A stretch of DNA of 64,000 nucleotides from Amoebidium appalachense. Taxonomy: Eukaryota > Protista > Ichthyosporea. The notes below the pieces were generated by a model that saw only the letters and a program-made list of their open reading frames with translations, ran no database searches and was not told the origin of the DNA. The stretch lies in assembly GCA_963693365.1 (NCBI GenBank), contig CAVNZM010000010.1, forward strand, positions 6,263,794 to 6,327,793, in the 5' to 3' direction. The translations under genes were made by a program, and so were the position numbers. Shown piece after piece: positions 13,006 through 56,463 of this stretch. Within the stretch, counting starts at the first letter, position 1, and the number at the start of each line of letters is the position of its first letter.

Positions 13006-24501
<11,496 letters not shown>

Positions 24502-26446: not shown

Positions 26447-34482
<8,036 letters not shown>

Positions 34483-35361: not shown

Positions 35362-35437
35362 AGAAGGGGGGGAGGGGAGGGGGGGGGGGGGGGGGGGGGG
35401 GGGGGAGGGGGAGAAAGGGGGGGGGGGGGGGGGGGGG

Positions 35438-35580
35438 TAGAGCGTGTTATAGAGTACGGAGTACACATTCATACCGGACAACACAAGGCAGAGTGCAAAC
35501 CACACACTAAGAGTACGCGTAGTAAGCAGAGCACATCCTCAGGGGGGACCTGAGTCATCCACAGTATCCGAGTTTCGACG
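35438..35580 (-). mobile_element. Structured retroelement, subfamily C (5'-truncated)
   Basis: Minus strand reads tcGAAActcggatactgtggatgactcaggtccccCCTGAGGAtgtgctctgctta...gtgtactccgtactctataacacgctcta then poly-C. Colinear with subfamily B but diverged. Confidence 0.8.
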
Positions 35581-39220: not shown

Positions 39221-41285
39221 ATGGCTTCCAACCCCAAGGGTCCGGAGAGACGTCCGTCTCTCCGCAAGCAGATTTCTCTCCGTGGTATCCCAGAGATAGA
39301 AAACGTTGAGGAAGTCAAGACAGCCTTTAACAGGCATCTGCACTACACTATCGGCAAGGTAATAGTTACGAAGATTAGGACGGAGAACGGTGTTCACAGG
39401 TGTCACACAAACCTGCTAAATGTTAGCTCTTAGCCGAACGTTTTCTCTTCAAAACCAGGAAGAATCATGTGTGTTTTTCCAACTCCGGTGTCGAAATCCG
39501 CAAAGCTTTATCAGAATAACAAACACGTCCTTGATTTCAGCCCACATGCCCTGTTACACACCAAACACCTGCATACCAGACACGAGTATGATGAAGAAAC
39601 GTGGAGCTCTCCTTCAAATGTTCTCTCGGAATGCCTTTGATTTCCGCTTACACAAGGAAATTGTTATTGATCAGCACACCTGTCACATGTAGGGCACCTG
39701 GCTGTGCACATTTCGAGCTATGTGCATTCATACAGTTATTGATTCAAGTGTTTACTACTTATGACCTGCCTGCCCTGATGTCTGTTTGTGCTTGCTTGCC
39801 GAGAACTACTCGTTTAGCTGCTGTTTAACAGAGTGTCGGGGGGGGTAACAACAGGATCGTAATGTTGCCGAGCCGTTTGACTACTCCAGTGCTCTGGCAC
39901 ACACCGTGCGTGACCAGCTGATTGGCAAATGGATCCGCACTCAGCAGCAGTATTACGAGCTTGACCCCAAGGTGTGTATTCTGCTTCTTGTTCCAATCAC
40001 ACAGTTGTATGCTCGCAACCCCCCTTTGGCTGTTTAACTCTCCTTTCTGAGACGGAGCAGTCAACATTCACTCTCTCCCACTCGGTGACTCTCATCTCCT
40101 GTTGCAGTTTCATTCTAAGCTTCCCCATCCCCTCTCTCTCCCTGCCCTGCCTGCCCCCACCGTGCATTCCCTTGCTACCACCCCACTGCTTCATTTCTCG
40201 TTTTTTCTCTCTTGCTCTTGCTTTAAGCCCAACCAGATACCCAACACTGCTCAGCATTGCCCCATTAACATGAATTGCCTGCTGGAACTGTGTACCATTG
40301 ACCTGCCCACGAGCCACTTTTGCATTTCGTCCCTTCCTCATGCCCCCCCCCCCCCCCCCCCCCCAACCGTTACTTGCCGCGAACCCTGATGATATACTCT
40401 GCCGTTTAATCATAATGCCCCCATTCCCTCGCCCGCCATCTCTATCCTCGACCTAGCCCAATGTTAGCTGTGCTCCTGGCCATCTATGGTGTATGGATTA
40501 GCCTAGACATGTTCGTTTTCCTTTACGCATTGGCATAGGTATGTTCGTGTGTCTCTTCTCTGAACGTGTGTGTTGACAGTCAACGGAGTGGCACCACATG
40601 CGCCTCCCCCCCCTCCCCCCTCCCCGAATCACCATCACCACCACCACCCCTCTCCCCCGGGGGCAATGCCCATACGCGCATGTTAATGTTTCCTCCCGCA
40701 GCGCGTGTACTACCTGTCCATGGAGTGGTACATGGGCCGCACCCTGGGCAATGCCATGCTGAATCTGGGCATCCAAGGCGCCTGTGAGGAGGCCATGTAC
40801 CAGATGGGGCTGATGATTGATGAGCTCGAGGAGTTCGAGGAGGATGCCGGCCTGGGCAACGGTGGTCTGGGCCGTCTGGCTGCCTGCTTTATCGACTCCA
40901 TGGCCACTGTCGGCCTGCCCGCCCACGGTTACGGAATCCGCTACGAGTACGGTATCTTTAAGCAGGAGATCCGTGATGGGTTCCAGCATGAGCTGCCGGA
41001 TGACTGGCTGCGCTATGGCAACCCATGGGAGATCAGCCGTCCCGAATACACCATCCCCGTGAACCTGTATGGTCACGTTGAGGACAAGGTGTGATTTTCC
41101 CCCACTCCCACCCCCATCACTCTCTCCCCCCCCCCCCCCCCCCCCCACCCTCCCAATCCCCCTCATATCCTATCCTATCACCCCACCACACCACACCATC
41201 AGCCAACTTCTATCCAGTCGCCTGTATATCGTGCGCATACTGTGTGATGTAAGGTTGACAAGCAGAGTGCTCGTATGATCATCCC

Positions 41286-41321
<36 letters not shown>

Positions 41322-44300
41322 GGAGTATTTAGATGCCCTTCCCTTTGGCTGAACTCGGTAACACACCCTTTATACTCCCCGTCATATCTACCACCCCAAA
41401 ACTGCATTTGGATGATGTGTGCATTTAACAAACCTCCATTCTCTCAGGACGGCAAGAAGGTGTGGGTCAACACCCAGAAGGTGCTTGCCATGGCCTACGA
41501 TACCCCCGTGCCGGGCTACAAGAACAACGTGGTCAACACCCTCCGTCTGTGGTCTGCTAAGTCCTCCAACGACTTCGAGCTGGGCTACTGTACGTGTTTC
41601 TCCCCCACCCACCTTCCGTATCGCGTTCCCCCTCCCCCCTCCCCTACACACACACACACACACCAACCAGCACCGCCTCCGCTTATCGGCTCTCCTCTCC
41701 ACATTCTCTCCCTCCTTCCTTTTCCGGCACCACAACCCGCTTTCCAACCCCCCTTCCCCTCCCTCCCGAGAGGGGGCCCTTTTACCCCCCACAGACAGCA
41801 AAGGTACACACTATCATATCACCACTTCCGACCTCTGTCACCTCATCCCCTCCGTCCCCTCCCCCTCTCCTCCTCCTCCCCCCCCTCTCCCCCGGGTGGT
41901 TCTTCCCCCGTTTCATATGACAGTCAATTCATACCTTAAATGCCCGATAATCCGCTTTGGCTAGCAATTGATGGTTTTCCCCAAACAGTCAACAGCGGTG
42001 ACTACATCGGTGCCGTGTTGGAGCGCAACCAGGCTGAGAACATCTCCCGTGTGCTCTACCCCAACGATAATGTAGGTCACCCTTTCCCCCGTTCCTATTA
42101 TGCACCTTTCCCCCTTCCCCCTCTCTGTTTTGCAATTAAAAGCCAACATAGCCTGCAAGTGAATCTCCGGTGCATTATATCTTTCCCTGCCCTCTTCCCT
42201 CTCCGCCCCCTCCCCCTCCCCCCCCCCCCCCCCCCCCCCCCCAATCACACACACAGACACACGCGCACACAAGCACAAACAAGAGGAAGTGAAAGGCGGG
42301 GGGGGGGGGGGGGGGGATTGTACTTGTATGCCGACAGTTCCGTAAAAATATGGAGAACTGACGTGGCCTGCATCCATCAGTTCTTCGAGGGCAAGGAGCT
42401 GCGCCTGAAGCAGGAGTACTTCCTGTGCGCCGCCTCGCTCCACGACATCATTCGCCGCTACAAGAGTTGCGAGTTTGGCTCCAAGTCCAGCAAGCGTTCC
42501 TCATTCAATAAGTTCAGCGAGAAGGTCGCCATCCAGCTGAACGACACCCACCCAGCCCTGGCTATCCCGGAGCTGGTATGTTGGTCTTCACACATGCACC
42601 TCATTTGCTTTCTCTTCCTCCCCCCCTCCCCCCCCCCCCCCCCTCCCTAACATCTTTACTTCCATGCAACCGGGCATGGTTGCTCTGTGTCGTGCATCTG
42701 TAAGCACATACGCGTTTTTCGCTGCACTGCATTAGTTTGCACACACATCTTCACCGTTCTGCTCACCTTGCTTGCATAAGCAACCCTGCTCGTCTTTGAT
42801 CAAGACGGGTTGACCCACCCAAGTTCAGTTGATGCTGCTGTTTGAGTTGGAGCGTCGTATATACGCGGGCTAAGGGGTCGAAACTCAGACGCAATTGATG
42901 ACTTGGGCCCTCCCTGAGGATGGGCTCTGCTTATGACGCATACTGTGCGCATGGCTGATGTTGCATACTTGAATGTTTGCCTTTGCATGTGTCCTGCACC
43001 ATGCTTCTCATCGTGTATGCGTACTTTGTACTGTGTTCCGCATTCAAACCCCCCCTGTCTTCTTTCAGAGGTGTCCTTTCAGGACAGACCACTGTGTGGA
43101 GACATCTTTACTTCCATGCAACCGGGCATGGTTGCTCTGTGTCGTGCATCTGTAAGCACATACGCGTTTTTCGCTGCACTGCATTAGTTTGCACACACAT
43201 CTTCACCGTTCTGCTCACCTTGCTTGCATAAGCAACCCTGCTCGTCTTTGATCAAGACGGGTTGACCCACCCAAGTTCAGTTGATGCTGCTGTTTGAGTT
43301 GGAGCGTCGTATATACGCGGGCTAAGGGGTCGAAACTCAGACGCAATTGATGACTTGGGCCCTCCCTGAGGATGGGCTCTGCTTATGACGCATACTGTGC
43401 GCATGGCTGATGTTGCATACTTGAATGTTTGCCTTTGCATGTGTCCTGCACCATGCTTCTCATCGTGTATGCGTACTTTGTACTGTGTTCCGCATTCAAA
43501 CCCCCCTCCCTAACCAACCCACCCACGAACACACACACATACACAGACAGACACTGACGTAAATACACGCACATACACCACCCACTCTAGTCTGTTCTTT
43601 CTGGCAGGGCTGCTGAAGGGGACTGCTGGAAAGGGGGGGGGGGGGGGGGCTTTTCTGGCAGGGCTGATGAAAGGGAATGGAGGGAGGGAAGGGGGGGGGG
43701 GGTTGCCTTTGTCGCGGATGTTAAGTTCGGCACGCAGATGCGCATTCTCGTGGACGAGGAGGGCATGTCGTGGGATGACGCCTGGGACATCACCATCAGC
43801 ACGATGGCCTACACCAACCACACGGTGCTGCCCGAGGCCCTCGAGCGCTGGCCATGCTCCCTGATGGAGCGCCTGCTGCCCCGCCACATGCAGATCATCT
43901 ACCACATCAACTACCTGCACCTTGAGGCCGTCAAGCTCAAGTACCCCGGCGACTGGGACCGTGTCCGCCGCATGTCCATCATCGAGGAGGGCGGTGAGAA
44001 GAAGGTCAGCCCCCCCCCCCCCCCCCCCCCCCCCCCTTCTCCTGCTCCCGCCCCTTCCCCGAGCATCTTTCATGACTGACTGCTTAGGGGCCCCACTGAG
44101 GACGGGGTCTGTGTATGAAGCATACTCATTCTTGTGCTGTTGCAATCTGTCTTGTTGCCATGAATGTGTACTTTCTACATGCTTTTTCCGCATTCCATGA
44201 AATGGTGTGCTGTGTACTGACCGGTATGCTACAGGTGCACATGGGCTACCTGTCCGTGGTGGGCAGCCACGCCGTCAACGGGGTCGCAGCTCTTCACAGT

Positions 44301-45054
44301 GAGCTCATCAAGCAGACCATCTTCAAGGATTTCTATGAGATGTACCCCGAGCGCTTCCAGAACAAGACCAACGGCATTACTCCCGTAAGTGTTTAAGGCA
44401 TTTAATTGCATCTGACAGCCATCAAACAAGATTGGGTTCGAGTTTTGTTGTTAGAAAAAATGGCTGTTGCCCGAGTTGCGCAGGCTGTTACCAGCATGCT
44501 GAGGCAGGAAGAGGAGACACGATAGCTGACATGAATATCCCCTACAGCGCCGCTGGATTGTCAAGTGCAACCCCGCACTCACCAACATCATTGCCGAGAA
44601 GCTGGGAGGTGAGGAATGGATCACGGACCTGTTCAAGCTGCGCAAGCTGTTGGACTTTGCCGGCGACACCGAGTTCCTGCGCCAGATCCAGGTCGGTACC
44701 TTGGTCACAAGGTTGCTTGCCTGCTTGCCCCCCCCTCCCCCCGCATATTCTTGATGTATGGTTCATGTGTATTTCGTACTTTATGGCGCATTCAAACCCT
44801 AGCCAACCACCCCACCCCACCCCACTCACCACCACCTGAACAAATGATGTGTGTATAAACAGGGCTTAGTCCCTGTACTATGCACACCACGTATGCTTGT
44901 TGAATGCCCTTGTTCTGCTCTGGTTTATTGATTGCAAGCATCAGGTTTCGTACTCCCCCCCGCCCTCCTCCTTCCCAACACCACCACACACACAAACACA
45001 CATAGCACCGACCACCCCCTCTCCCCTCACCCCCCCACCCAACCCCGACCACCT

Positions 45055-45085
<31 letters not shown>

Positions 45086-45891
45086 GAACACTCTCTACAT
45101 CTCTCTAAGGCACAGCTTGTGGATTTTCTATGTTTCCTCGTAGATAACATATATGTTGTGTTTGGCGATACCCTCTACAAACAGGACATTGGTATCCCCA
45201 TGGGTACAAACTGTGCTGTTTTCTTGGCTAATTTCTATCTCTTTACTTATGAGTTGGATTTTGTTCGCAAGCTTATTGCACACGAACGCATTGATGTCTT
45301 GGTAGATTTTCAGTTTACTCGCCGCTACATAGATGATTTGATCTCCCTTCATAATCCTCGCATTCTCTCCCACCTCTATTTAGAAGATTGTGATTTCGGT
45401 CTATATCCCAAGACCAGCCTTCAACTCAACCCTGCCGGTTCCTCCCCCTCTGTCCCCTACCTCGACTTGCATATCACCTGCACTAATCACGGCATTCACA
45501 CAACCATCTACAACAAGCTCGACACACCCACGTTCAATACACTAGACATCGTTCGTTTCCCACATCACGACTCATTCATCTCCCGCACTGCAAAATACGG
45601 CATCATGACAAGTCAAATGCATAGCTACCAGCGCAAATGCTCCACACTTGCTGCATTCACCACATGCACTGCACGACTTGCTAAAACATTGCTTAACAAA
45701 GGCTACTCGTTTAGACTCTTGCACCACAAAATGCACAGCTTTCTCGCCACACACCCGCACATATACCGTGGCGTTCACTCCTCTCACATACTCTCCATCA
45801 TCACTAAAAAGATCAACACTCCCTAGTCCCCCACTCTATCCCGGTTCCCCCCCCCCCCCCCCCCCCCCCCCCCCCTACCAGCCCCTACACC

Positions 45892-45928
<37 letters not shown>

Positions 45929-46833
45929 CCTCTCTCTCTCCCTCTCTCTCTCCCTCTCCCTCTCTCTCCCTCCCTCTCTCTCTCTCTGTCTCCCTCTCTC
46001 GCTCTCTTTCGTTCTCTCTCGTTCTCTCCCTCCCTCTCTCTCTCTCTCCCTCTCCCCCTCTCTCCCCCTCTCCCCCCCCCTTCCCCCTCCCCCCCCCCCC
46101 CCCCCCCCTCTCTCTCTCTCCCCCCGCTCCTTTTCCCAAACAATTCCCCCGCCGTTCTTCTTTCTCAGCCGGCTAGGTTTTTTGGGTTGCCTGGTAAGTT
46201 TTGAAATGGAGGTCTCGTCTCTGATCTGTCCACCACAGGGTTTTTTTTTTTTTTTTTTTTTTTTTTTTCCCTCCCTCCCTCCCCTCCCTTCCCTCCCCTT
46301 CCCTCCCCCCCCCCCCCCCCCCTTCCTTTTTTTTTTTTTTTTTTTTTTTTTTCCCTTCTCCCTCCCCCCCCCCCCCCCCCCCTTCCCCTCCTACCTTCTT
46401 TTTCCCCCCCCCCCTTCCCCCCCCCCCCCCCCCCTGGCCAAACCCTGTATACACTCTTCTCATCAGCAGGTCTCTAACCCACTCTGCAGAACGTTTTACG
46501 CATTTCTCCCCTCGGAGAACTTGGTCGTTGGTGCGTTTTTGTCTGACATCTAACGACTCTGCAGGGTCCCCTGAGACTACTGACACTCTAACATTCCCTC
46601 CCCTCTCTTACTTCCCCCCCCCCCCCCCCTCCCCCTTTCCCTCCTCCTTCCCCTCCCATTTTCTCTGCACACCCAACAGGTCTTAACCAGATCTGCACAT
46701 CGTTAGTCACAATCTTCTCACATATATGAGAGAATGATCGTATTGGTACGATTTGTCTAATATCTGACGATTCTGCAGCATCCCTAAGACCCCCCTCCCC
46801 CCTCCCCTCCCCCTCCCCCCCCCCCCCCCCCCA

Positions 46834-46920
<87 letters not shown>

Positions 46921-46925
46921 TTCCT

Positions 46926-46973
<48 letters not shown>

Positions 46974-47034
46974 GCGCCTGTTGTTTTGCTTGTCATTTGT
47001 TGTTCTGGTTGATTACCTGTAATCTTCGCTTATT

Positions 47035-47071
<37 letters not shown>

Positions 47072-48501
47072 TGTGCGGGGTTGCACATACCGGTGTCTAC
47101 TTTTCTTCTTACTGTTTTTCTCTCCACACACTTCATCTGTCCACTTCTGCATACCCCCTTTCATAGCTATAGACACACTTCACACATTGCGTTACGCGCA
47201 CGCATGCACACACCGCTCTGTTGGCGACAGCTCCCTTGGAACCCATGCGGCATGTTACCCGCCGGCGTAACATAACTCGGACTATCGGTTTGGCTTTTTT
47301 CAAGCCCAAAGCAATGGGTGATACCATATTTCCGGCTGACATCCGGGGGCATAGCTTTCCGTTCGAAGACGATAAAGTTCCGCCCTAGTAAGCGTGTTAC
47401 TACCCTGCGGCGTGGGTCAAATCTCATATTTTCCCCTCTGATTACGAATTCTGTGGCCTTCGGGACTTAATTCTTTTCAGCTGGTGTAGTATGTTAGCCA
47501 GGGAAGTATCGACTTAGGTATCGACGGGGGAGCTTCCTAGAAGCCCCGTCTCCTGAGTTCCTATCTATATTTTTCTTGCTTCTGCTTACTGCTGCAACTT
47601 TAACCCCCGGCCTTTCCCACTGCCCTTGCCTGCATAAGCAACCCTGCTCGTCTCTGATCAAGACGGGTGACCTACTCATGTTCAAGTGAAACAGTATCTG
47701 AGTTGGGTTTCGTTAACGAGGGGAATAGGTCGAAACTCGGGTACTGTGGATGACGTGGGCCCCCCCTGAGGATGGGCTCTGCTTATTATGCATACTCTTT
47801 ATGTATGGCTTGCATTCTGCATCGTGTTATCCGTTTGTTCTTGTGTACTTCGTACTTTTTGACGCATTCAAAACCCCCCCCCCCCCCCCCCCCCCCCCCG
47901 CCCACACACACACACACACACCCATCACCGACCTCCCCCGCTACCCATCTACCCCTTGCAATTTCACGTTCTTCCCAAACCATATTTGCTAACCACACGT
48001 GATGGCTGCAGCACGCCAAGCGTGAGAACAAGATGCAGCTTGCTGCCCTGATCAAGAACGACTACAACATCGACATCAACGTGGACTCGATCTTCGATGT
48101 GCAGGTCAAGCGCATTCACGAGTACAAGCGCCAGTTGCTCAACGTCCTGCACATCATCACCCTGTACAACGGTAAGCCCCCCTACCCCCCCCCCCCCCCC
48201 CCCCCCCCCCCCCACCCACCCACCCACCCACCCACCCTTTTTCTGAACTCACATACACACGCGCGCACTCTGCAGGCTGCAGGGCATCATTTGGTGGTTT
48301 TATTATTTCTCGTTTGCCTTCAGGAACCTCCAACAACAACAACAACAACAACAACCCCCTCCGGCCACATGTGATCAACGCTCCTCACGGCCATGCACTA
48401 ACCCCGTGCCTTCTTCATGCAGACATCAAGCGTAACCCCAACGCAACGTGGGTGCCGCGCACGGTGATGTTTGGCGGCAAGGCTGCGCCCGGCTACTTCA
48501 T

Positions 48502-48538
<37 letters not shown>

Positions 48539-48835
48539 AAGAAGGTCAACAACGACCCCCTGGTGTCCAAGTACCTCAAGGTCGTGTACTTCGAGAACTA
48601 CCGCGTGTCTCTTGCCGAGCGCATCTTCCCCGCCGCCGATCTGTCCGAGCAGATCTCCACTGCCGGCACTGAGGCCTCCGGCACCGGCAACATGAAGTTC
48701 CAGGTATGTTGATGAATATGTGTGTGTCACATGTAGATATGCCACGGGATGTAGATACACCACGGGCTGCGTGTGTTTGAAGCGTCATGTTTACCCATGG
48801 TCACAGGGTTACGTCCACTTGAAAGCAAGTCACTT

Positions 48836-50814: not shown

Positions 50815-53800
50815 CACCGTACCACGGTGACAACCACCACCAAGTACGGCCTGTGACACGGTCTTTATTTAGGAGCCCTCCCCTCCCTCCTCCCTTCCCT
50901 CCCTCCCTCCCTTTTCACCACCACCAGCAGGTTTACACGGTCTGTATTTGAGAGCCCCCCGTCCTCCCTCCCTCTCGAGGTTCTCCCCACTACCACCACC
51001 ACCACCAGGTTTATATACAAATTCAACTCTACATTGGTCGACACATCCACACACCCCGGTTACGCGAAAAACCGAGGCATTATTGTACTTGCCGCGCCAC
51101 ATGTCGAGTGAGAGTGAAGTGCAAACCGGTACCGGTAGCAAAAACGGAATTCTCGGTTTCTATAGAGTTTCTTTCTAATGTTTTTACTTTTGTATATTAC
51201 CCACCATCTATGTCGGTTGCCGAATTGACTCACGAGTTGTCACAGTTACCAATGTCCACTGTTATTTTAGGTGATTTTAACACGCGACTCCACAACACAG
51301 ACACACTGCAAGTGAGTGTCGGGTACCCATCTAAGCCGCCGGAGCGTGCTATCCCTTTAGCAAGGTATGTCCAAAGTCACACTTTGCGGTTCCCTCAAAT
51401 ATCCCATGCCCACAACACCGACTGAGGAGTGGCCTTTTGGCCATCAACCATGTCAAAACTCTCTCCCCCTCCTAACCTCTCTAGGTCATCGATATCTGAC
51501 CACTCTCCTATCCTTTTCCTACCTAAGATCTCCCTTGATCTGCTCCCCCCTCCTCCTCCCACCTTTCGCCTCCGTCTATCCCAGCTTAAGTCACAGTGGG
51601 GCAGAGTTGATGTATGTGTATGCTATGCAACGAAACACCCTATATATATGCGCCTATTAGAATCTGCACAAGCCAGACCAGATTCACATCTCGTACTAGA
51701 TACATGCACTAACTTTATTGTTGATTATTTAATAGATCTCGGTGATTATGCTGGTGGTGGTAGGAAGGAATATCCCGATGCTCTCTTGTTACCAAACACC
51801 ACTCCCGCTAGACTAGGTGAACCCCTGTCTCAAAAGGAAAGCTTGCGCCGGCTTGCTAGTATGAATCAATTTGGCCCCCCTGCTCGTAATATTGGTGATA
51901 CCACTGGAGACCCCCTCCTAGACTCTGATAAGTATTTCTCGGAACTGTTTAAAGATAGGACCCCCGCTCAGAAACCTACTGTGTGGCCTGTAGACCCATC
52001 TATCCCCATAGAATCGATCCTCCCCTTTTTCAGTCCCCATACCATATGGTCTGTGATATCTAGTTATAGCTCTAGTAAGTCTTGTGGACCTGATGGACTC
52101 CCTGCTCGGTTTCTTAAAATCCTTGTTCCCTCCTACCCACAGAAGGAAAGTGATCGTGCTATTAAACCTGATCTTACTATTATGTTAAGCTCTCTCTTTT
52201 CTTGGTGTGTTAAATGTGGACATGTCCAGTCATCTTGGTTAGATACCTTAGTGATCCCCATAGTTAAGAAGGACTCTGAGGGCCCCATATCATCTTTTCG
52301 CCCCATCACACTAACCCAGGTTGTTCGTAGATTCTTTGAAGCTTGCTTACTTAGGTTATTTGCACAACACCCTAGGTTTCAATCTATTCTTCACATACAC
52401 CCATGCCAATCCGCTTTTCGTAAAAACAATTCATGTTATGTTCAAATAATGGCACTGCACGATTCTATGCAAGTTGATGCACACGATATGTTGGCTTTAT
52501 TGATTGGAAAACTGCTTACGATTCTGTCTCCCCTGGTATCCTATGGGAAAAGCTTGCTGCACGGGGTGTACCACACTGCATTGGTGTTCTGTTAGAAGCA
52601 CTCTTGTCTCAAACCTATGGTAGAGCTTTGGTTAATGGGCATCTTTCATATGGTTTTGCTCGTACTAGAGGTCTCTTGCAGGGTTCATTGCTTAGCCCCT
52701 TTTTGTTTAACCTATTTATAGATGATTTGGCTGTCAAGATTTATGCCGAAAACGATGACCCTATTAATAACTTTTCGCCTGCACTTCTCTATGCTGATGA
52801 TCTGTCCCTCCTTGCCCGTACCCCTAGACGCCTTCAAAGATTGTTCGTTGTAGTGTCAGAGTGGTGCAAGGCAAACCTTATGATCTTTAGCATAGACAAA
52901 TGTGGTGTTCTTGTACCTGATATAGCTAACAATTTACACACATTTACATTATCATCTAAACCTGTACCTATAGTTCCAGAATACAAATATCTTGGTGTTC
53001 CGGTTAATTCTGTTGGTGTTATGTTTTCCCATATGGTCGAAAAGAGGGTAGAGTTGGCTCGTAAGCGGTTAGCTTTCTTCTCGACTAATATTTTTAAAGA
53101 CACACCCCTCCATCCTTCTATTAGACTTACATTTATTCGCACTTTTGTCTTCCCGGCATGTGAATATGGTTTACCCCTTCTCGCCGCTTGGATCAAGAAA
53201 GAAAGAACTAGGGTTAAACCCTTGGCAAATATCCTTGAAGCAGAAGTTGCCTCCTTCCTATCTAACAACTGTTGTAGGGCCTGGGCCTGTAACACTCTCG
53301 ATATATGGTCTGGTCCCAATAGCTGCTAGAGTATCCTATCTCGCGCTGAAATTCAATAAGCACATAAGCCGCTTAAAGAAGTATTTGCCCTCCCACCCTC
53401 TCTTCTCTATCCGACCTGTCCCCTCCTCCCCTCTCCCCTCTTTCCTTCCCTCTCACTCCCCTTCTCCCCTGGGCACAAATACAAATAAACCCCGCAAAAG
53501 TGTGTGTGAGAGTTTGGACTGCCACTTACTTATTAAACATGTACACAATCACAAGATAATCACGCAATATAACAAATGGAAAAAGATACCACACGACACT
53601 AGACCCGATAAAAGCAGACACCTTGAAAAACTAAGCCTTATGTCTCGTTTTATATATACTGACCGCCTCAACCATATTGCCAAATATGGCACTCGCAAAT
53701 GTATAACACCTAAATACATATTACCTTCCTGTAGAACTGGTCTTTCTCTAGCTGATGGTATTATTGATCAATTTGGGCCACGCTTTTACTGTACACGTGC

Positions 53801-54085
53801 TATACAGTGGAGCTGAGTACTATGATAAGTATAAGGTGGCATCGTTTGCATGCCCAAGCAACACACACACACACCAGTTTAAACGGTCATGTATCGCCAA
53901 ATGTAGTTTGATAGACCACATAATACCGCAACACACACACGTCACATTCACAACAGACACCCAGAAAGATAGCCTACCTGTAAATTACTACTAGCTTGAT
54001 TTTATACTAAACACGCGTCACTACGACCTGTTTATTAGATGTATCAGTGATTGGCTTGAGAAACACATCACTACAAAATTCTAGC

Positions 54086-55790: not shown

Positions 55791-55824
<34 letters not shown>

Positions 55825-56463
55825 GAATGCGTCAAAAAGTACGAAGTACACAAGAACAAACGGATAACACGATGCAGAATGCAAGCCATACATAAAGAGT
55901 ATGCATAATAAGCAGAGCCCATCCTCAGGGGGGGCCCACGTCATCCACAGTACCCGAGTTTCGACCTATTCACCTCGTTAACGAAACCCAACTCAGATAC
56001 TGTTTCACTTGAACATGGGTAGGTCACCCGTCTTGATCAGAGACGAGCAGGGTTGCTTATGCAGGCAAGGGCAGTGGGAAAGGCCGGGGGTTAAAGTTGC
56101 AGCGGTAAGCAGAAGCAAGAAAAATATATATGGGGGGATTGTGAGGACTAAGTCAAACCCCGATAACAATGAATGTTGATATATGTCTGTGTGTTCTGCC
56201 GACGAGAGGAGACTATGGCGAAAGAAAAGTGGGGGTTAATGGGGGTTGTGAACGGGGGCTTTGTATGGCTGCTCTGACTTTTTGGGATGCGCCTAAAATT
56301 GTGGGAGTCGAGCCCACTGTAGAAAACAAAGAATTTTAGGTAGCAGGAAAGGGCGACGAACATGAAGGGATAATTAGTGGACAGGCGAAAGCAAAACGTA
56401 TACGGTGCCTATAATTCATGTGCGCGTGCCGTGTAGAGGGATGGTGGTGGGTGTATGTATGGT

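Follow-up and report, generated by a model that had tools for sequence, protein, structure and literature searches.

Natural hammerhead ribozymes of types I to III are circular permutations of one segment order, in which a cleavage triplet (NUH) is followed by CUGAnGA and GAAA. Eckert (2023; PMC10085705) divided the hammerhead into three blocks, S for the cut site, G for GAAA and C for CUGAnGA, each taken with its flanking stem strands, and these were presumed unbreakable. Natural hammerheads of two non-circular orders, type SGC and type CSG, cleaved in vitro at 0.004-0.19 per min. Type SGC came solely from metatranscriptomes (583 examples, none from the genomes of known organisms), and type CSG from two metagenomic sequences. 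In the HRIMA-1 alignment of that paper, stem II follows CUGAUGA directly, mostly past one extra U. Both SGC hammerheads and those of Penelope-like elements (PLEs) commonly have GUU-type sites and an additional base behind A9, and a base between positions 9 and 10.1 is tolerated (PMC4209133). Two groups of PLEs, Naiad and Chlamys, were reported to be without canonical hammerheads; 10 'HHR_core' and 8 'HHR_half_core' entries were flagged, in which 35-50 nt separate the first half from the second, on one side or the other (PMC8557442). Here we describe a repeat in 64,000 nucleotides of the Amoebidium appalachense genome (contig CAVNZM010000010.1, positions 6,263,794 to 6,327,793, forward strand; this whole stretch is the window), which a first-pass annotation had proposed as a candidate hammerhead of new topology.

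We consider it likely, judging from the sequence, that a high-copy PLE family of Chlamys type carries this repeat as its 3' terminal repeat, and that the repeat forms a self-cleaving hammerhead of the SGC class, with stem II supplied by an upstream strand and a predicted four-way junction leading to A9. The hammerhead core (C3-A9, G12-A14, A15.1-U16.1, H17) was complete in all seven full copies in the window, which belong to two subfamilies about 80% identical: three of subfamily B (19690+, 47634+ and 55908-) and four of subfamily A (42776+, 43228+, 27094- and 27547-, the last without the outer closing strand). Each copy held GUU, GAAAC and CUGAGGA in a non-circular order, as the first-pass annotation had claimed, and the segments lay where it had placed them (GUU 47702-47704 and 42846-42848, GAAAC 47732 and 42880, CUGAGGA 47766-47772 and 42914-42920, in B and A respectively). 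Its identification of the carrier as a PLE terminal repeat was also borne out. Stems I to III, together with four extra helices, were found in the seven copies. Read in sequence, the strands run P0b5'-H5-II5'-P5'-III3'-GUU-I5'-II3'-GAAA-III5'-P3'-I3'-CUGAGGA-P0b3', and the parts in the best-described copy are as follows.

47634..47786, plus strand: full motif of subfamily B, split type-SGC hammerhead candidate
47634..47644, plus strand: 5' strands of the closing helices, P0 at 47634-47640 (pairs with 47780-47786) and P0b at 47642-47644 (pairs with 47774-47776, one U after A9); P0b pairs with other letters in the relatives L099 and L109 described below
47646..47668, plus strand: hairpin H5, 8 bp with a palindromic loop, abutting the stem II 5' strand; an arm of the predicted four-way junction, with an equivalent hairpin in L099 and L109
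47669..47674, plus strand: remote stem II 5' strand (G10.1 at 47669), pairing with 47726-47731
47675..47684, plus strand: 5' strand of extra helix P, pairing with 47751-47759; would probably hold stems I and II together
47691..47707, plus strand: block S, with the stem III 3' strand at 47691-47703, H17 at U47704 and the stem I 5' strand at 47705-47707; cut predicted 3' of U47704, the site being set by analogy
47710..47719, plus strand: perfect 10-nt palindrome in the S-G linker; subfamily A has a different 10-nt palindrome
47726..47747, plus strand: block G, with the stem II 3' strand, GAAA at 47732-47735 and the stem III 5' strand
47763..47772, plus strand: stem I 3' strand and CUGAGGA (47766-47772)

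Stems I and III abut the core on both strands. Stem II abuts G12, and its 5' strand is not contiguous with A9; it lies 34 nt upstream of the predicted cut, before block S. A9 thus reaches stem II solely through an inserted junction, as had been suggested at first reading, when the 3-bp helix P0b (CCC 47642-47644 with GGG 47774-47776, beginning one base past A9) was overlooked. The S-G linker measured 18-22 nt and stem III 8-13 bp in the window copies. A second GAAAC in B (47688) was considered as G12-A14 and rejected, being absent from A; descriptor matches at window positions 43508 and 5066 were taken as chance for want of stem II or context.

The circular order of types I-III was not found in the motif, in which the order of CUGAnGA and GAAA is reversed. 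That order had been called undescribed; it is not new, since NUH-GAAA-CUGAnGA corresponds to type SGC, for which PMC10085705 provides in vitro validation. The motif resembles type SGC (HRIMA-1 and its variant) in block order, full core and pseudoknotted stems I and II, in the extra U after A9, and in stem II letters, which in SGC are often GACC/GGUC. In contrast, the stem II 5' strand of type SGC lies within 1-2 nt of CUGAnGA, whereas here it is upstream of block S; the S-G linker there is about 3 nt; a helix encloses block C there, whereas the window motif has helices H5, P0b and P; and type SGC is known from metatranscriptomes, whereas this motif lies in genomic retroelement DNA. A candidate 5-6 bp helix enclosing block C is present in the window motif and competes with P, P0b and an adjacent stem II. 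Type CSG is likewise a non-circular class, and if P0b and H5 are taken as closing the chain, the window motif equals CSG opened between A9 and G10.1; in CSG, however, block C is intact and comes first. Core halves 34 nt apart in reversed order recall 'HHR_half_core', for which PMC8557442 gives no structure. A literature search, which took in neither subscription journals nor preprint supplements, found 'type-SGC' only in PMC10085705. Nor did it find a paper linking non-circular hammerheads to PLEs or describing a core opened between A9 and G10.1; PMC13725137, PMC10761166 and PMC11662667, which mention non-circular permutations, were outside it. As far as that literature goes, the new part is the broken CUGAnGA/stem II block and its occurrence in genomic Naiad/Chlamys elements. 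Falling outside types I-III and strict type SGC, the motif is likely best filed as a split-core SGC hammerhead of Naiad/Chlamys retroelements.

Pairing was counted in an alignment of five full copies (B 47634, B 55908-, B 19690, A 42776 and A 27094-; 44 pairs, 220 cells), copies in this work being taken from the window and from contigs of sequencing runs. The proposed structure paired in 97.7% of the cells and slid controls in 27-45%. Both-sided changes were seen in 4 of the 44 pairs, in stem I (G-C/A-U), stem II (U-A/C-G), stem III (A-U/G-C) and helix P (U-G/A-U); all four stem from one A/B split and therefore amount to one comparison, not four independent events. The claim that A and B covary held for stems I-III and the extra helix, to the extent of that comparison. 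P0, P0b and H5 were invariant across window copies, bar one broken pair in B 19690. A third subfamily, C, was said to keep GAAAC and CUGAGGA and does so; it is 5'-truncated (35531-35579), so it provides no test of any pairing. In contigs of four runs, the catalytic segments GUU, GAAAC and CUGAGGA showed no variant at 3% or above, and the variants 47673 T>C and 47727 A>G restore a stem II pair. In nested folding B did not stand out (z -1.15), and A did so moderately (z -2.66); the pseudoknotted stems I and II had a probability of 0-0.09 in nested ensembles. Rfam gave no match in the window at the gathering score, as the first-pass annotation had expected. A weak Hammerhead_1 match for B (14.2 bits, cut-off 34) independently pairs GACCUA/UAGGUC before GAAAC; subfamily A had not even a weak hammerhead match of this kind.

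Two features, upstream of and around the motif, bear on the element that carries it.

47075..47874, plus strand: 3' part of the high-copy 5'-truncated element with B; ends GCATTCAAA before a C-run, 165-170 nt beyond the predicted cut
45080..45826, plus strand: 5'-truncated reverse transcriptase (RT) fragment, 99.6% identical to residues 691-938 of protein P0002; 1.8 kb upstream of B on the same strand

P0002 has 938 residues, with an N-terminal GIY-YIG domain at 27-79 (21.3 bits, cut-off 22.6), CPC (CxC), DKA and RYIDD; the window holds solely residues 691-938 of a protein of this type. The N-terminal GIY-YIG, CxC and DKA, the (C)n/(CA)n targets, the 5' truncation and the partial tandems are shared with Naiad/Chlamys PLEs (PMC8557442), and the last three of these traits are present in the window family itself. 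P0002 has no CCHH or CX2-5CxxC around the endonuclease and one cysteine in its first 140 residues, a Chlamys as opposed to a Naiad trait, and the window family is likely a Chlamys-type PLE. All full copies share the 3' end GCA(T/A)TCAA followed by a C-run, and most start in C- or CA-rich DNA. The motif-bearing family is very abundant and 5'-truncated: 47075-47872 was covered throughout by contigs of four runs, and summed depth in run X1 climbed from 1e5 to 1.7e6 toward the 3' end, with single listed records at 13-57, values that are not copy numbers. The window as a whole is eukaryotic and microsatellite-rich. A family-specific pattern had no match in metagenome contigs, and RT alignment found no relative in viral contigs.

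Relatives of the RT were collected at 120 loci (the best 80 of at least 524 from metagenomes and 40 from genome bins), 69 of which have at least 500 nt of 3' flank. The 40 bin loci (L081-L120) are eukaryote-type PLE RTs in prokaryotic genome bins, likely host or eukaryotic contamination. Of the 102 loci with at least 150 nt of flank, 7 had a sense-strand core in SGC order downstream of the RT, compared with a shuffle mean of 0.4 and none on the opposite strand; locus L099 was added by a whole-locus scan. Once stem II was required, 8 of 120 loci passed (shuffles, 0-1), and these represent three unrelated sequences: a six-locus family, L099 and L109. Both L109 and L099 were picked by descriptors demanding just the core and stems I and III, and the remote stem II, P, H5 and P0b turned up at the same places after that selection. 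The whole layout of the window motif is thus repeated with other letters in these two of the 120 loci, in the 3' untranslated region (UTR) of Naiad/Chlamys-type RT relatives with 27% (L099) and 25% (L109) RT identity to P0002: P0b, whose helix begins 0-1 nt past A9, is followed by H5, by the remote stem II 5' strand and, a single base later, by P, with S, G and C coming next. In both the window subfamilies and these distant elements, single-stranded core letters were conserved while helix letters changed. CCUC follows A9 in L099 and pairs with GAGG before H5; no G follows A9, so neither an adjacent G10.1-C11.1 nor an adjacent stem II is possible. L109 has a 3-bp adjacent GCC/GGC available as well. 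The S-G linker is 5 nt in L109 and 2 nt in L099. The full descriptor had no match in 30 block-shuffles of 579 kb, and when the core was kept and the 5' flank shuffled it matched 0, 1, 0 and 0 times of 400. MAFFT did not put the blocks of the window, L099, L109 and the six-locus family in register, and pairs across families were counted by script.

The six-locus family (L004:3758-3900, L006, L007, L010, L014 and L070; decayed in L013 and cut short in L015) is a further sub-architecture. Its SGC core lies 130-330 nt after the RT match in Chlamys-type elements and has a GUC site, a stem III of 8 bp, a stem I of 5 bp, a clear 7-bp helix enclosing block C and no adjacent stem II. A quick tree forces at least three motif changes, with L015 labelled SGC though truncated and L099 unlabelled. 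Further descriptor matches (the CSG/CGS extras in L007, a second site in L006, and L110, L064, L111 and L114) were set aside as chance, with no stem II or context. L009, L095, L087, L079, L063 and L085 have CUGAnGA downstream of the RT and no complete core by script or by eye; two of them hold tandem repeats of about 290-300 nt there (L009:1367-1900 and L095:2364-3010), every unit having CUGAnGA, a flanking helix and no recognisable GAAA block. The Naiad-like RT open reading frame (ORF) of L099 (1-2640) ends in a ubiquitin-specific protease domain (Pfam UCH, E 5.6e-27).

Part of the published consensus tails of PMC8557442 (File S5) was read by eye. The split-SGC layout was seen in three Naiads, two from octopus and one from an ostracod; the ostracod element has CCCC after A9 and so no G there. 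Complete type-CSG cores were present at the 3' ends of seven nematode Naiads (a Pristionchus element, Naiad-1/-2/-3_Nbra, Naiad_Hcon, Naiad_Hpol and Naiad_Asuum, some names being assigned by file order); their stems I-III covary, and block C lies within a long helix. Several of these non-circular cores are themselves HHR_core or HHR_half_core entries of that paper, and the seven CSG and three split-SGC cores account for the 'HHR_half_core' label. In one ostracod passage and all Chlamys consensus passages viewed, no non-circular core was seen. One spider Naiad tail (File S5 part 17) has SGC order with stem II as a local hairpin between S and G, and the bases after A9 pair into the loop of that hairpin, another way to split block C. 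The split tail is likely the ribozyme that Naiad/Chlamys-class retroelements were reported to lack, its cutting being predicted.

Several observations weigh against this assignment. Covariation within the window comes from one subfamily split only, and the number of pairs with both-sided changes was equalled in 206 of 500 shuffles, so the window by itself is suggestive and no proof. The remote stem II taken alone was weak against shuffled 5' flanks (p 0.02 for B, 0.14 for A, 0.12 for the L004 family and 0.08 for L109), stem I is short, at 3-4 bp (-3 to -4 kcal/mol), and the C-run before stem I (-9.5 kcal/mol) or an adjacent stem II may instead take up the GGG that follows A9. The motifs had already been seen when the full descriptor was devised and its thresholds set, so its nulls are not blind. 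No such core was found in 112 of 120 RT-relative loci, 51 of which have less than 500 nt of 3' flank, and the six-locus family, nearest to P0002 in the quick tree (support 88), is without H5 and P0b. B and the RT fragment are separated by microsatellites; the linkage of motif and RT was seen in relatives, and in the window the tail is a candidate UTR. Neither a depth step nor a pile of ends was present at the predicted cut in contigs of four runs; the idea that truncated copies start at the cut was unsupported and dropped, since depth rises mainly at 47750-47776, with loose ends at 47749 and 47760 (27-nt bins). Three intact sense copies sit in introns of a glycogen phosphorylase gene, where their tolerance suggests slow or conditional cutting. 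Finally, the hammerhead of another PLE needed protein in order to cut, and insertion in vitro could dispense with that hammerhead (PMC11167929).

An ordinary type SGC hammerhead would explain the core with block C intact: with 1-2 nt inserted, GG(CU) after CUGAGGA would make a weak stem II in the adjacent position, and the upstream GACC would be a scaffold, or an off-switch displaced for catalysis. The adjacent register (GGCU two bases after A9) gives 4 pairs in B and 6 in A, 2-3 of them G.U, with -2.2 and -5.4 kcal/mol; the remote duplex with GACC(U/C) gives 5-6 Watson-Crick pairs with -7.3 and -8.5 kcal/mol, so the adjacent stem is weaker by 3-5 kcal/mol. Among natural hammerheads there are stems II of 1-2 bp as well as U10.1 mismatches (PMC3088659), published SGC hammerheads often carry an extra U after A9 (PMC10085705), and the 3-bp GCC/GGC of L109 would serve. 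However, the adjacent stem needs a 2-nt insertion in the window and uses the same bases as P0b, the A/B double change falls in the remote pairing, and an adjacent stem is impossible in L099 and, by eye, in the ostracod Naiad. We regard this explanation as unlikely.

A real core might instead assemble only between two copies, as a dimer or tandem, or only with the protein of the element, as minimal PLE hammerheads do. PLE hammerheads are known to act as dimers or to need protein (PMC4209133, PMC11167929), subfamily A occurs as a tandem, and self-dimers of -15 to -27 kcal/mol are predicted for the differing perfect 10-nt linker palindromes of A and B and for the palindromic loop of H5. On paper, however, self-dimerisation is open to any hairpin, and the known cause of dimerisation is a stem III of 1-2 bp (PMC4209133), whereas here it has 8-13 bp. 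The L099 and L109 linkers of 2 and 5 nt leave no room for a palindrome. All helices of the motif form within one copy, so a dimer is not required, and we find this arrangement quite improbable. A catalytically dead or non-catalytic structure, that is, a decayed hammerhead kept as an RT binding or priming signal, would suit the short stem I, the long S-G linker, the tolerated sense intron copies, the in vitro dispensability cited above and the lack of the motif in most RT relatives, but is very unlikely, given that the single-stranded catalytic bases stay unchanged from one subfamily to the other, at about 80% identity, and among elements with 25-30% RT identity while helix letters vary, and that related permutations cleave (PMC10085705).

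For the split-core SGC hammerhead, the following mechanism is proposed. Stem III and helix P would fold first, and stems I and II would then form their pseudoknots. Stem II, H5, P0b and the A9.G12 pair would make up a four-way junction with 0-1 unpaired bases per corner, through which stem II could stack on the core in the manner of an ordinary hammerhead; for the A9/G10.1 site, the assumed geometry is that of hammerheads in general. Helix P, joining the strand after the stem II 5' strand to the strand before the stem I 3' strand, would replace the stem I-II contact. Cuts are predicted 3' of U47704 in B and of U42848 and U43300 in A, and the role would be the processing of read-through or tandem transcripts. 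The other copies and fragments in the window are listed here.

42650..43500, plus strand: subfamily A partial tandem, 399 + 53 + 399 bp, period 452, no ORF, retrozyme-like; motifs 42776-42934 (predicted cut 42848) and 43228-43386 (predicted cut 43300)
26980..27693, minus strand: second, 5'-truncated insertion of the subfamily A tandem; predicted cuts 27633 and 27180
19669..19927, plus strand: B copy, motif 19690-19842, predicted cut 19760
55823..56128, minus strand: B copy, motif 55908-56060, predicted cut 55990
35417..35579, minus strand: subfamily C, truncated just before GAAAC
44088..44196, plus strand: diverged 3' stub with CUGAGGA only

Subfamily A is thus a non-coding partial tandem with a period of 452 bp and one hammerhead motif per unit, at two insertion sites. 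It resembles non-LTR (long terminal repeat) retrozymes and the hammerheads of PLE pseudo-LTRs (pLTRs) in being a non-coding tandem repeat of about 450 bp in which each unit has one ribozyme and which originates from the end of a PLE (PMC7229834, PMC4209133, bioRxiv 10.64898/2026.07.22.740005). Those hammerheads are of type I (circularly permuted), often minimal and dimeric, in contrast to the SGC order in the window. Cleavage at both sites of the A tandem would set free a 452-nt monomer (42849-43300), possibly circularised like retrozyme RNAs. Reverse transcription may start internally at the C-run, 165-200 nt past the cut, which would explain the fixed 3' end, the C-run targets and the partial tandems of 1.6-1.9 units; internal RT initiation was demonstrated for another PLE (PMC11167929).

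A broader reading, which we favour somewhat, is that the motif represents a seventh natural hammerhead connectivity, in which the chain is interrupted within the catalytic core, after A9 and before G10.1, and restored through a four-way junction; that together with CSG it is the missing Naiad/Chlamys ribozyme; that non-circular hammerheads are abundant in the genomes of animals and other eukaryotes; and that a retrozyme-like circular RNA cycle operates in this family. Non-circular hammerheads would then no longer be a metatranscriptome rarity, and the stated rule that CUGAnGA must run directly into stem II would be broken. Genomic, high-copy examples would become available for SGC, a permutation known from environmental RNA, and for CSG, known from two sequences; the window contributes a C-run-targeting family of Chlamys type and a retrozyme-like tandem, and the published puzzle that Naiad/Chlamys apparently lack the ribozyme borne by other PLEs would be answered. 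Families in which block C is intact (CSG), split (window, L099) or open to either arrangement (L109) would form a series for studying the evolution of non-circular permutations, with a motif compact enough for constructs of about 150 nt.

The glycogen phosphorylase gene spans 40700-48600 (plus strand) and is intron-rich, with its nearest relatives among solved structures in animal enzymes; its introns also hold the RT fragment. A separate, frameshifted element resembling a long interspersed nuclear element (LINE) lies at 50952-53816 (plus strand; RVT_1, E 2e-21 for 52478-53326). Two other pairs of short repeats, 85-90% identical and unrelated to the motif, were found at 9929-10062/11287-11419 and 50921-51013/54531-54621.
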